Positions 27,717-32,686 of a stretch of 32,686 nucleotides of DNA are shown piece after piece. The first letter of the stretch is position 1. The number at the start of each line of letters is the position of its first letter. The translations under genes and the position numbers were made by a program. The notes below the pieces were generated by a model. That model saw only the letters and a program-made list of their open reading frames with translations, searched no databases and had not been told where the DNA came from. Source of the stretch: Promethearchaeota archaeon. GTDB lineage: Archaea; Asgardarchaeota; Hermodarchaeia; Hermodarchaeales; Hermodarchaeaceae. The DNA is taken from assembly GCA_048939245.1 (NCBI GenBank), contig JBHLPR010000025.1, positions 1 through 32,686 on the forward strand. Reading direction: 5' to 3'.

Positions 27717-29474
27717 ATGGAACAGCTAGTTCATAATGGCATCCGGATTATCGAACTTCCTAATCCCACAGATATGGTGCTGACCATCCGGGGTACAGAA
27801 TACACGCTCGATGCCCAGCAAGAACAGATGGCAATGGCTTTCGTCGCGAAACGACATCTTGGTTATTGGGAAGACCAAGTATTTGTTCGTAATTTTTTGA
27901 AGGATTTCAGCAAGGCGTTAGGTATTAAACCGGTCCTAAAACCCCAGGAAATCCAATTGGAACCCCTCTTTCAGGAAGGTATTGTTCGTAGAGATCGCGA
28001 ACAGCAACGGAAAGAAGCCATGACAAAGGAAGACCGTAAGGCATTGGCCACACAGCGGAAAGAAACCCGGGAGACCCTCCGCGAACAATATGGGTATGCA
28101 ACAATTGATGGAGCGCACATCGAAATTTCAAACTGGACAGCTGAACCAAGCTGTATTTTCATGGGACGTGGCAAACATCCGCTGCGGGGAAGATGGAAGC
28201 CCGGTCCCCAACAAAAGGACATCACCCTGAATTTAAGCCCGGATGCACCCATGCCCGAGGGTAACTGGGCAGGGCGCGTTTGGCAAACTGATAGCCTCTG
28301 GATTGCTCGCTGGGAAGATAAGCTCTCAGGGAAAACCAAGTATGTCTGGGTTTCTGATACTGCACCTATGAAGCAAGACCGTGAGGCGCAGAAATTTGAT
28401 ATGGCCCAGCAACTAGCCAAGCGGATTAAGGTGGTCCGTCGGGCTATCCAAGATGGGATGAACGCGAAACGTGCCCGCCGACGCCAAATTGCTACTGCCT
28501 GCTATCTTATTGATGTCTTAAGTCTGCGAGTGGGAGACGAAAAGGATCCTGATGAAGCTGACACGGTCGGGGCTACCACCCTTCGACCTGAGCATGTTAC
28601 AATAAAAGCCAATGGTGAGGTGGAATTCGAGTTCTTGGGCAAGGATTCTGTTCCGTGGCATAAGACAGCAAAGCTCCCTCCTGAAGTTGTCGAGGAGTTA
28701 CAGGAACTACTCAATAATGCTCGAGCACCAAGCCAAAGCAACCCCAAGGGAAGAGCGCATCCAACTAGGGTTGAACCCCAAATTTTTCCTGATGTCAAAA
28801 GTCGTAACGTGAATGCATTTCTTTCAGAGATTATGCCAGGACTCACAGCGAAGGTCTTCCGGACCTATCATGCTAGTAGCACCGTCCGAACTTCTTTAAG
28901 TCATTCAAAGGTAAAACCTGGAGATCCCAAATGGGTGAAGAAGAACGCCGCAAAACAGGCAAATCTTGATGCAGCGATTGTATGTAACCATACCAAACAA
29001 GAGCCTAAAGGGTGGAAAAGGCGGCTACAACGTTTCCGGGAACGACAAAAGAAAGCAAGAGAACGGATTCAAAAAGCTAAACAAAATTTAGAAGCCCGGC
29101 AAGCGCGATTGAAAGAACTCGAAACCAAACAAAAAATGAAGCTCCAACAATTGAAGGAGAAGGGAAAACCTATCCCACGGGGTAAAAATCGACCGTATAC
29201 ATCCTCAATCGCCACTACCCGACGAAGTGTTGAAACCGCGAAAGAACGTCTAGCCCGCGCCAGAGACGCCAAAGACAAATTAAACGCACAAATCGACATT
29301 GCCAAAAAAACCCGGACATGGAATTTAGGCACAAGCCTCAAATCCTATATTGACCCCCGTATCTATCGAGATTGGGGACATCAGGTCGATTATGATTGGA
29401 AAGACTTCTACTCGAAGACGCTCCAACGCAAATTCGCTTGGATTGCTAACGAACACGAACCAGCGAAAAACTAG
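27717..29474 (+). CDS. top1: DNA topoisomerase IB (eukaryote-type)
   Basis: LVHNG, FMGRGKHPLRG, LRVGDEKD, ADTVG, FLGKDS, AKVFRTYHAS, CNH, GTSLKSYIDPR with catalytic Tyr544. Confidence 0.96.
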   Translation: MEQLVHNGIRIIELPNPTDMVLTIRGTEYTLDAQQEQMAMAFVAKRHLGYWEDQVFVRNFLKDFSKALGIKPVLKPQEIQLEPLFQEGIVRRDREQQRKEAMTKEDRKALATQRKETRETLREQYGYATIDGAHIEISNWTAEPSCIFMGRGKHPLRGRWKPGPQQKDITLNLSPDAPMPEGNWAGRVWQTDSLWIARWEDKLSGKTKYVWVSDTAPMKQDREAQKFDMAQQLAKRIKVVRRAIQDGMNAKRARRRQIATACYLIDVLSLRVGDEKDPDEADTVGATTLRPEHVTIKANGEVEFEFLGKDSVPWHKTAKLPPEVVEELQELLNNARAPSQSNPKGRAHPTRVEPQIFPDVKSRNVNAFLSEIMPGLTAKVFRTYHASSTVRTSLSHSKVKPGDPKWVKKNAAKQANLDAAIVCNHTKQEPKGWKRRLQRFRERQKKARERIQKAKQNLEARQARLKELETKQKMKLQQLKEKGKPIPRGKNRPYTSSIATTRRSVETAKERLARARDAKDKLNAQIDIAKKTRTWNLGTSLKSYIDPRIYRDWGHQVDYDWKDFYSKTLQRKFAWIANEHEPAKN

Positions 29475-30148
29475 GTGGCTTTTTTAGGCTCTATTGTTGT
29501 AAATTTTTGAATTCCTTGCTGAAATGCCTTTGCAGCGCGAGCGGGATTCTTAGCCTTGGTGATACCCCCTCCAGCAATCACAATCTCCACCGGATACTCT
29601 AAGATATTGGGTAAATCTGCAACTCGGATTCCGCCAGCAACAGCAAGACAAGGGTGACCACGCAATCGTGAAACCGACTCTAATTCCGATAAGGGCGCAC
29701 GCCGTGCGGCTCGACGGTCCAACCCACTGTGAACACACGCATAGTGAATATCTGTGCCCTTATAGGAAAGCCCTAAAATATCGGCAAGTCGACTCATGGG
29801 AATACGGGAGACAATTAAATCCACCATCACTTCAACATCAAATTCATGCGCTGCTTTTAGTGCACCAATGAGGGTTTCATTATAGGCATCAGCTAATACG
29901 GTAACAATATCCGCTGAGGCCTGGGCTGCCATCCGCACCTCTAAATAGCCTGCATCCGCAGTTTTGAGATCTGCACATACCGCCTTATTCGGATACGCTT
30001 TCTTGAGCGATTTCACGGCGCCAATACCTTCTGCTTTTATTAGCGGGGTTCCTGCCTCCATGATATCCACATACGGCGCAACTTGTTCCGCAACTTTGAT
30101 TGCGTTATCCAAATTTTCGAAGTCTAAGGCAACTTGCAGTCGAACCAT
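29471..30148 (-). CDS. 3-hexulose-6-phosphate synthase (HPS/KGPDC family)
   Basis: LQVALD, EAGTPLIKAEG, ADLKTADAGYLE, HSGLD, AVAGGI, GGGIT. Confidence 0.88.
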   Translation of the reverse strand: MVRLQVALDFENLDNAIKVAEQVAPYVDIMEAGTPLIKAEGIGAVKSLKKAYPNKAVCADLKTADAGYLEVRMAAQASADIVTVLADAYNETLIGALKAAHEFDVEVMVDLIVSRIPMSRLADILGLSYKGTDIHYACVHSGLDRRAARRAPLSELESVSRLRGHPCLAVAGGIRVADLPNILEYPVEIVIAGGGITKAKNPARAAKAFQQGIQKFTTIEPKKAT

Positions 30149-30302
30149 GGTCAGCACAACCTATACACTCCTCGATTCGGCGCCTATAAAGGCACTTATC
30201 CGTACGGATTCTGTAAAAAAACGGCGTAAGCAAAAACCTTGCTATAAGCTAGAACACGATGACACGAAAGGATAAAAGGTGAAAACTAGCACACTTTCCC
30301 AT

Positions 30303-30686
30303 ATGAGAGCTTTGACCTGCATTGCAATTCTCTTCGGAATCATCGCAATCGTTGCGGGATTCTTCGGCTTCATGTTCTTGATTGCCACCGTCGGGGACAT
30401 TGCCGCAAACCAAATGACTGCCCTTATGCTCTTTGGTGCCACCGGGATATTGATTGTTGTCGCAATCATCCTCGGCTATATCGGACAGCGACAACCCGAA
30501 CGGGTTGTTGTCCAGGCCCAAGTCGACCTCCCAAGGGACTTTGATGTCAGTGAAGTTACCTGTCCACATTGTGGAGGTACCCCTACTCGGGACAACTTAG
30601 CCTATGATCCACGAATCGGGGCCGTGGTCCTCACGTGTCCCTATTGTAGTAAAGTGTCTCAACTTGTCGAAGACGTTAAATGGTAA
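30303..30686 (+). CDS. two-TM membrane protein with C-terminal zinc ribbon
   Basis: Two hydrophobic helices, then CPHC...CPYC, ends QLVEDVKW; alternative GTG start 30279. Confidence 0.8.
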   Translation: MRALTCIAILFGIIAIVAGFFGFMFLIATVGDIAANQMTALMLFGATGILIVVAIILGYIGQRQPERVVVQAQVDLPRDFDVSEVTCPHCGGTPTRDNLAYDPRIGAVVLTCPYCSKVSQLVEDVKW

Positions 30687-30775
30687 TTCCAAGACGGAAA
30701 ACACAAAAGCCTGTCTTAACCTAGTCCAACTTAAAATAAAGCAAAATTCCCCATTTAGGCCTTAGCGAGCTGAAT

Positions 30776-31150
30776 ATGTCAATGGTGTCTAATCCCCCAC
30801 CTCCCTCTTCTAATTCACTATCAAGTGAAGCCATCGTTAAACAGCTCACCCAGGTTCTAAGTGACTTGAAAAGAGAGGGAAAACTCATCAGGATCCAAAT
30901 TTGCCCGAAATGCAAATCCCCCAATATTCGCGGTCAAGAAACCTGGTATGACATCGGTGGTGCCATGGGGATAACTCCCCCCAAGTACCGCTGTCTTCAC
31001 TGTGGCTACTGGGGACGAGTTATCATCGAAGCCACCAACGAAGATATCGACGAAAGGGTCCTCGATGACTTGGCGCGAAACGACGCCGAAAGCGCCCAAA
31101 AGCTCTTGAATGATATTAGCCAACAATCAACTAAACAGAAAGATCATTGA
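30776..31150 (+). CDS. zinc-ribbon hypothetical protein
   Basis: CPKCKS...YRCLHCGY. Confidence 0.75.
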   Translation: MSMVSNPPPPSSNSLSSEAIVKQLTQVLSDLKREGKLIRIQICPKCKSPNIRGQETWYDIGGAMGITPPKYRCLHCGYWGRVIIEATNEDIDERVLDDLARNDAESAQKLLNDISQQSTKQKDH

Positions 31151-31166
31151 AGGATGTGCCCAACTA

Positions 31167-32686
31167 TTGACCCGTATCAAATTCTTCCCCATTGCTCTCA
31201 TGGTGTGCCTGTTCATCACATTTGCTAGTCCATTAGTCCTTGCTCATGGTTTCTCAGGAACCAGTACCCCAAATATCAACGCAACATCACACCGACTGAG
31301 CCCTGTAAACTATGATTTCCGGATCCTCAATGAAACCGTACAAGTCTTTCCCCAAATAGATGCATCCGCACTCATCAACTACTCTATCACCTTTGAAAAT
31401 TACGGCACCGAATTCGACTACATCGATATCGGATTACCTAACACCTACTATCAACTATCTAGCTTTCGTGCTTACTGGTCCCTTGAAGGTGCACCCTATG
31501 TTGAACTCACCTCCATCGCACCTTCCTCTGTAGTTGATATTGGAATTGAGATTTATATTCCCCCAGCCGTCCAACCCGGAAATGGGGAAGAAGGCACGAT
31601 TCTAGTCTGGGGCAACCAGGGTCACATGGTCTATCTTGATACCGACCCCGCCACTCCCGGTTATGTCGGATATGAATTCATTCCCACCTGGTATGGATCC
31701 AGTTACAACCGGGGCACCGACTATCTTGCCTGCCATCTGCACTTCCCACCAGGCTTCAACAACGGCACCATCGCCAAATACTATTACAACGCCCCCACGA
31801 CCCACTACTGGACCAACACCAACCTGGTCTACGTATGGGAATACACTAACCTCGCCAATTATCAAGGCATCCTCCACGGCATCGGCTTCCCCTACGATGA
31901 ATCCTACATCACCACCTACTACACCACCAACGGCGGCACCACCACAAGCATCGACCTCTGGGCCTTCTTAGAAGAATACGGCGAACTCCTCATCTACGCC
32001 GTCATTTTCATCATCTTCTTCGGCGCCTGCTGCATCGGCGCCATCAAAAGTACCCGCCTTGCTGGTGCGGGACGCCGCCTTGTCAAACGTGGCTACCTTC
32101 CCCCCGCTGTCAAAGTCGAAGCCCTGGGCATCCGCCGCGGCCTCACCGTCATCGAAGCCGCCGTCCTCAACGAAACCCCCCTGGACCGCGTCTTCACCAT
32201 GGTCGTCTTCGGCCTACTCAAAAAAGAGCTCATCACCGTCCAACGAACCGGCAAAGCTAAACCCACCTTCCACCCCAACCCCGACGCGATCGCGAAAGCC
32301 GCCAGCGCCAAAGGCCGCCTCCACTACTATGAACGCCTCTTCCTCAAAGCCATCACCCCCCAAGGCAACCTGCACAAAACCCGCGTCCGCACCATGCTCA
32401 ACACCCTCATCAAAACCACCGCCCGCAAACTCGAAGGGTATAGTCGCACCGACACCAAAGCCTTCTACACCCGCATGATCGACCAAGCCTGGAAACAAAT
32501 CGACCTCGCCACCACCCCCACCGCCCAAGCCAGCGCCCTCACCGACTACGCCGAATGGCTCCTCCTCACCCCCGACTACGAACGCCGCATCAAAACCTAC
32601 CCCACCTACTACGTCCCCGGCTGGTACTGGTGGTGGATCCTTGCCAGCCACCCCCGTCCCCACACCATCACCCACCCTCCAGGCAC
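31167..32686 (+). CDS. large single-pass membrane protein (DUF2207-like architecture), 3' truncated by window
   Basis: Not in ORF track. Open frame of at least 506 codons from TTG 31167 (alt ATG 31200): signal peptide, beta-rich exterior domain (DYIDIGLP, FIPTWYG, HFPPG), TM helix LLIYAVIFIIFFGACCIGAI, then YLPPAVKVEALGIRRGLTVIEAAVL...GYSRTDTKAFY. Confidence 0.85.
   Translation, partial: MTRIKFFPIALMVCLFITFASPLVLAHGFSGTSTPNINATSHRLSPVNYDFRILNETVQVFPQIDASALINYSITFENYGTEFDYIDIGLPNTYYQLSSFRAYWSLEGAPYVELTSIAPSSVVDIGIEIYIPPAVQPGNGEEGTILVWGNQGHMVYLDTDPATPGYVGYEFIPTWYGSSYNRGTDYLACHLHFPPGFNNGTIAKYYYNAPTTHYWTNTNLVYVWEYTNLANYQGILHGIGFPYDESYITTYYTTNGGTTTSIDLWAFLEEYGELLIYAVIFIIFFGACCIGAIKSTRLAGAGRRLVKRGYLPPAVKVEALGIRRGLTVIEAAVLNETPLDRVFTMVVFGLLKKELITVQRTGKAKPTFHPNPDAIAKAASAKGRLHYYERLFLKAITPQGNLHKTRVRTMLNTLIKTTARKLEGYSRTDTKAFYTRMIDQAWKQIDLATTPTAQASALTDYAEWLLLTPDYERRIKTYPTYYVPGWYWWWILASHPRPHTITHPPG

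Follow-up and report, generated by a model that had tools for sequence, protein, structure and literature searches.

The DNA analysed here (the window) is the whole of contig C102, 32,686 nucleotides in length, from a 2.5-Mb Hermodarchaeia assembly (genome G000), and its right-hand end carries a steep excess of C at silent sites. We read this stretch as the left flank of a footprint produced by recurrent homing-endonuclease breaks and their strand-biased repair by gene conversion, in this case by intronless homing, and we put the probability of this reading at about 70%. It starts from direct observations, namely the geometry of the skew, an endonuclease gene with its fold and catalytic acids, the linkage of that gene to the skewed host gene and a neutral block that is allele-specific. 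The features concerned, from gene calls made with our own dipeptide model (by which some skewed genes were miscalled), are as follows.

29474 to 30148, minus strand: hexulose-phosphate-synthase-like gene, beside the ramp
30303 to 31700, plus strand: ramp of the left flank, fourfold C 0.38–0.58
30303 to 30683 and 30776 to 31147, plus strand: two small Zn-ribbon genes within the ramp
31110 to 32684, plus strand: host gene, 525 amino acids in the window, open at the contig end
31700 to 32686, plus strand: plateau of the left flank, silent sites C-rich and G-poor
32684 to 32686, plus strand: putative in-frame junction of C102 with contig C117 (reverse complement), overlapping by 3 nt
C117, 2672 to 2923, minus strand: last 84 codons of the host gene
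C117, 1 to 1491: convergent free-standing double-LAGLIDADG ORF, tail-to-tail with the host gene

From position 31600 onwards C occupies 155 of the 194 fourfold-degenerate sites against a genome rate of 0.245 (P ~5e-59), and from 31740 the four bases stand at C 0.83, A 0.05, G 0.05 and T 0.07, whereas A has a genome value of 0.29. The counts on which the original prediction was built were all reproduced exactly: third positions are T in 17 and C in nine of the 36 host-gene codons at 31452–31559, C in 30 and T in none of the 38 at 32127–32240, the bases at 32461–32520 comprise 27 C, 17 A, eight G and eight T, and 36 of 38 Lys, Glu and Gln codons end in A. Its description of the bias as a joint skew towards C and A has to be given up, as A falls at fourfold sites while C rises; at the two-fold sites of the plateau C reaches 0.89 and A 0.97, and A-ending codons prevail in the skewed part only where A/G is the choice. 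Nor does the bias switch on at 31600, as had been proposed. The best single step lies at ~31750, a smooth decay (scale ~940 bp, centre just past the edge) fits equally well (−logL 569.7 vs 570.8) and the two genes upstream of the host gene are already tilted, with C at 0.43–0.44. On the coding strand of the gene at 29474–30148 two-fold C is 0.18 and A 0.59 (vs 0.38 and 0.70) with ordinary fourfold sites; the numbers are small, and this gene is possibly a faint, mirror-sense tail of the zone. Towards the contig end G+C climbs to ~0.6, and 17 runs of at least four C residues lie within 1.2 kb.

The host protein is a single-pass membrane protein with a β-sandwich ectodomain and a conserved C-terminal Cys-Ala ladder, which is the most conserved part of the family. 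Pfam DUF2207 was matched weakly (E 0.003) by one of 41 homologues, and the structure atlas gave a weak match (TM 0.40) to a cluster with 20% DUF2207, which suggests a DUF2207-like protein at most; neither the host gene nor the two cargo ORFs described below had matches in Pfam or PDB sequence searches. The interval 30303–32684 forms a conserved three-gene module of a Zn-ribbon membrane protein, a soluble Zn-ribbon protein and the Cys-Ala-ladder single-pass protein, with no Pfam family of weight.

The host gene is open at the contig end; we infer that it continues onto C117, and the joined gene has a length within two residues of that of an orthologue. On C117 the C bias runs on for 42 codons, 40 of them C-ending, and then stops ahead of the stop codon, ~130 bp beyond the window edge (virtual position ~32815). 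A neutral, A+T-richer block of ~1.8 kb follows, containing the tail of the gene, ORFs of 162 and 141 amino acids and the C-terminal half of the LAGLIDADG ORF, and within the N-terminal half of that ORF the mirror bias appears, with G (on the window plus strand) at up to 29 of 40 third positions. Two parts of the original prediction are borne out by the mirror flank on C117 and by the orthologous loci: the strand-specific process is local and has its centre shortly beyond the right edge, and the sign flips past the contig end, where the flip brackets an insert. The cargo ORFs of 141 and 162 amino acids are located at L172:1524-2427, inside the neutral block, and a homologue of the 141-residue product lies directly upstream of an actin-linked endonuclease (L310:1061-1501 and three relatives).

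The ORF on C117 encodes a monomeric protein with two LAGLIDADG motifs and HTH segments, with a long HTH-rich N-terminal part. Its predicted structure (pLDDT 91.7) displays the double-LAGLIDADG fold, i.e. two LAGLIDADG helices in an α-β-β-α-β-β-α arrangement, and Foldseek matched it to I-DmoI (TM 0.70 by target, rmsd 3.7), I-SceI and PI-SceI/intein endonucleases, with WhiA in the top row. The LAGLIDADG_3 model scored above its cut-off on C117, and the other Pfam and PDB sequence searches with the endonuclease returned weak matches only. WhiA/DUF199 is a domesticated LAGLIDADG protein that likewise combines this fold with HTH, and it has no catalytic acids; unlike WhiA, the present ORFs keep their acids (Asp is retained in both motifs of the linked alleles) and are multicopy, patchy and often decayed. 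The ORF stands alone between intact genes, and the intein models searched had no match on C117.

An endonuclease is linked to the same host gene in G003, G004, G006 (where it is frameshifted) and probably G011, giving four to five genomes in total, and in G008 a second, tandem copy of the ladder gene is found instead. In G004 and G011 a second LAGLIDADG paralogue that has lost both catalytic acids lies between the gene and the intact endonuclease; these acid-less copies (L194:845-2098 and L171:200-1438) are tail-to-tail with the intact ones. The linked alleles share 60–87% identity in the skewed N-terminal half and 30–72% in the neutral C-terminal part, and this drop, which falls roughly where the skew ends, goes with mosaic relationships, whereas an unskewed endonuclease pair is evenly similar along its length. 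In G001 and G008, where no endonuclease lies directly behind the gene, the C-run extends into the Cys-Ala ladder and ends ~12 codons short of the stop; where an allele has the endonuclease, it stops earlier or is broken into patches, and the silent sites of the last 12–40 codons vary between alleles.

We also determined, by a silent-site scan of assembly G000, that such mirror flips are a genome-wide feature: 21 two-sided flips run C-left/G-right and three the reverse, or 11 and none under a stricter model, and the genome contains ~22 strong zones. Their change points are sharp, often within 10–30 bp, nearly all lie inside genes and, by inspection, nearly all centres fall on conserved protein motifs. 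Inward-strand values of fourfold C/G are 0.53/0.05 for genes that point to a flip (background 0.245/0.155) and 0.35/0.11 for genes that point away (background 0.155/0.245); as the bias inverts in opposite-strand genes, it follows position and strand and not coding sense. The skew is back at background by ~2 kb. Deamination of single-stranded DNA, the process originally suggested, fails on its own because it would raise A together with C: A is depleted at the fourfold sites of this locus, and genome-wide the A/T ratio hardly moves near flips. In the comparison of orthologue silent sites that had been proposed as a check, the ramp recurs in nine orthologues and flips in secY, porB, H+-PPase and hydrogenase keep their positions throughout the genus and, in part, in its sister genus. 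No flip was found in secY of other Asgard classes, and small samples (540 kb) from three further Asgard genomes contained no two-sided flip. The flip centres have no DNA motif in common (a search for enriched spaced k-mers gave only G+C-rich words), and orthologue alignments at the flips revealed no invariant silent positions.

The layout at the present locus, a conserved gene with rising C that faces a LAGLIDADG ORF whose C-terminal part is neutral and N-terminal part skewed, is repeated at the genes for the hydrogenase large subunit (seven genomes), actin (five) and a Rab-like GTPase (two to three). Within 1.5 kb of a strong zone we found five of the eight LAGLIDADG_3 loci, against 2.3% expected for each (P ~3e-7), and two zones that are orphans in G000 have a LAGLIDADG neighbour in relatives, at the acyl-CoA dehydrogenase and ETF-alpha-like genes (C118) and at an MvhA-like gene at the end of C115. 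Inteins tell a similar story. In Hermodarchaeia MCM, PolB and PolD the skew is +0.3 to +0.76 before the intein, ~+0.05 inside it and −0.2 to −0.67 after it, the flips match the intein junctions within a few codons, and these junction positions are shared with unskewed archaea. In addition, two porB genes of G000 flip at the codon that carries an intein in the porB homologue of another Asgard. Most inteins tested in other Asgard classes are unskewed, one MCM excepted. No skew surrounds the V-ATPase A, Cdc48 and Hel308-like intein sites or many endonuclease copies, which fits their being recent arrivals.

Several further observations concern these loci. The actin protein (L204:2427-4714) is almost invariant in five genomes, its gene faces a third LAGLIDADG family and its skew ends near a conserved C-terminal motif. 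An MCM with two inteins from a complete genome of another family (L278:856-9929) flips at +0.32/−0.39, and the right flank of a porB-like intein from another Asgard class (L277:2652-4727) is unskewed. Many Hermodarchaeia genes host inteins (L243:2004-4463 and L240-L276), among them genes that, from their motifs, we take to be those for Cbf5, Cdc48, V-ATPase A and RNA polymerase and one of the radical-SAM type, and most of the inteins at L240-L276 are unskewed.

How such flanks might arise can be set out as a sequence of events, in which we infer both the cutting by the putative endonuclease and the repair chemistry. Where an allele lacks the endonuclease or has a different one, the enzyme would cut the conserved Cys-Ala-ladder codons close to the 3′ end of the host gene, and the allele that encodes the enzyme would then serve as donor for repair of the break by gene conversion. 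What lies between the flanks (gene tail, cargo and nuclease half) would be copied on both strands and so stay neutral, while for 1–2 kb on each side one strand alone would be resected and refilled, in a strand-biased step that, on the break-ward strand, puts C ahead of every other base and A ahead of G. Candidates for this step are biased heteroduplex correction (NucS/EndoMS), fill-in synthesis that favours G, or damage to extruded nascent strands plus transversion; NucS is present in the genome and the match to MutS is weak. Repetition over the history of the genus would rewrite the silent sites, and intein sites would be subject to the same process. If each enzyme has its own target, no common motif would be expected and the sites would lie on conserved codons. 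In close genome pairs the zones are not more divergent and A-to-C differences are approximately doubled on the inward strand, with divergence times as a confounding factor. Extended to the lineage, this proposal would mean that in Hermodarchaeia free-standing LAGLIDADG families home without introns and compete with one another through exchange of nuclease halves and target-bearing gene ends, and that a lineage-specific strand-biased repair scars every long-used cut site; the scars would then record past programmed breaks and point to frequent recombination between alleles. We advance this wider version tentatively, at slightly less than even odds.

In roughly half of the ~22 strong zones (among them secY, H+-PPase, radA, thioredoxin, Rab and porB) neither an endonuclease nor an intein lies within 1.5 kb, and no endonuclease was found near secY, porB, H+-PPase or radA in relatives, the check covering 12–18 relatives where looked at (12–16 for radA, secY and H+-PPase). 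These orphan zones nevertheless stay strong and are conserved across the genus, and need enzymes acting in trans, elements since lost, or a host-defined hotspot. The last of these could be extended to all sites, if breaks or recombination start at host-defined hotspots on conserved motifs (e.g. where exchange between divergent DNAs begins) and these in turn allow endonucleases and inteins to persist. The endonuclease-free zones, the placing of nearly all centres on conserved motifs and the hypervariable slots downstream of the zones would all suit such hotspots. However, the flips lie within a few codons of intein junctions that unskewed archaea share, the neutral block matches an allele-specific cassette, and the skew fades in some intein-free MCM genes (weaker in G006, nearly flat in G002), even if that of G014 still flips at site a. 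We regard host-defined hotspots as unlikely. As a separate observation, in 13 genomes (L316-L328) radA stays C-rich until 55 codons from its end, and a hypervariable slot with no endonuclease follows the gene.

The C-left/G-right polarity of the flips (21 against three) is also that of the GC skew at replication origins and of the deamination gradients on the mitochondrial H-strand, and the original prediction had named an origin among its candidates. This sign would result from many sequence-independent origins, through deamination of the lagging-strand template or errors of a start-up polymerase. Unlike those skews, the present one spans 2 kb with no replichore tail or long-range inversion, recurs at about twenty sites, lacks a fourfold AT skew, and has its centres inside genes, split by neutral inserts of 0.8–1.8 kb. 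Searches for ORB repeats gave three loose matches on C117 (1.8 expected) and seven in the 23 kb surrounding strong zones, fewer than the genome rate predicts, and orc1/cdc6 homologues are found on C81, C22, C91 and C72, away from the flip centres, with none on C102 or C117. As the zones fade within ~2 kb and come with no ORB or cdc6, an origin is very improbable here.

A transcriptional cause, either R-loops at convergent genes or selection for C-rich, G-poor RNA at termination, is likewise very improbable. The host gene and the endonuclease are indeed convergent with C-rich coding strands, and coding strands across the genome have C above G (0.25 vs 0.16). Among 286 convergent pairs, however, only 1.4% of gene ends reach such skew; flips also fall within genes, past which point the coding strand is G-rich, genes that point away from flips are affected too, and at this locus the bias ends ahead of the stop codon. 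It is harder still to credit codon selection by translation, with high expression of the gene favouring C endings. Several skewed genes (radA, secY and actin) are housekeeping genes, but fourfold C is 0.15–0.42 in ribosomal-protein genes and 0.24 in Lys/Arg-rich short genes, the bias shifts within single genes, and its inversion on opposite-strand genes refutes such selection for the two-sided flips. Finally, chimeric joining in the assembly, or recent import of half of the gene, which the high G+C of the contig end and the break of several assemblies in the host gene might suggest, is refuted, because unitigs (contigs, not raw reads) of two runs span 30266–32080 and 30266–31922 across the ramp without mismatch and the ramp is shared by nine orthologues with syntenic neighbours and 54–77% protein identity, drawn from Hermodarchaeota/Promethearchaeota assemblies and not independent by kinship; a related strain's sequence also spans 31413–32018, and the assembly breaks fall in C-run-rich DNA. 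In the EF-2 gene of another Asgard (L135, G029, about 103900-105600) most of the length is strongly C-ending on one side only, which is probably translational selection.

The homing footprint that we favour has partial precedents. The free-standing T4 endonucleases SegF, SegG and MobE home by gene conversion with co-conversion of up to ~2 kb (PMC2790892; reviewed in PMC13565253), a range that the ~2 kb reach of the present skew matches. As in T4, the endonuclease gene lies beside a conserved gene, apparently outside any intron or intein, and the cut would fall at a distance, inside the neighbouring gene. Unlike T4, the setting is a cellular archaeal chromosome and not a phage, the protein is a LAGLIDADG enzyme with a long HTH-rich N-terminal part and not GIY-YIG or HNH, and the allele-specific block seems limited to the nuclease half; no compositional footprint is described in the papers that we searched. 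Haloferax MCM inteins home by gene conversion (PMC10643990) and offer a second parallel, with a LAGLIDADG cut at a conserved site, gene-conversion repair and co-conversion of the flanks, and the Hermodarchaeia MCM, PolB and PolD flips at intein junctions resemble this homing; the present locus differs in having no intein, and most intein sites tested in other Asgard archaea are unskewed. At human meiotic break hotspots, mutation is strand-asymmetric within ~2 kb of a recurrent break (PMC7615360), with the same rotational symmetry as here. However, at those hotspots the exposed strand loses C and A by mutation, whereas here the equivalent strand gains C, so that, as we read those data, damage to a resected tail would give the opposite sign; in addition, silent sites here are near-saturated and no shared DNA motif defines the sites.

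Both intronless homing and break-centred strand asymmetry are already known; the contribution of the present locus is the link between the mirror skew and a free-standing endonuclease. The literature searched, in which few subscription papers were covered, contained no description of homing sites with a mirror codon skew close to saturation, or of chromosomal free-standing LAGLIDADG homing in Asgard archaea. If our reading is true, silent-site composition would map repeated cutting and conversion in uncultured Asgard archaea and would provide indirect evidence of frequent homologous exchange between cells in these relatives of the eukaryote ancestor. It would also predict where a new set of meganucleases cuts, show that intronless homing, known from phages, takes place on archaeal chromosomes too, and expose an undescribed strand-biased repair step. 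The strong local bias in core genes used for phylogeny and origin prediction (secY, radA, mcm, polB, polC and actin) is a warning for work on this lineage.

Two minor observations concern the contigs themselves. The window also contains, at 27717–29471, a topoisomerase IB of eukaryotic type, in which all three Pfam domains are present. Five other assemblies (L004, L007, L008, L009 and L010) likewise break in the C-run-rich 3′ part of the host gene, and the C90/C18 and C81/C58 contig breaks also fall at skew zones, so that short-read assemblies seem to be fragmented by these zones.
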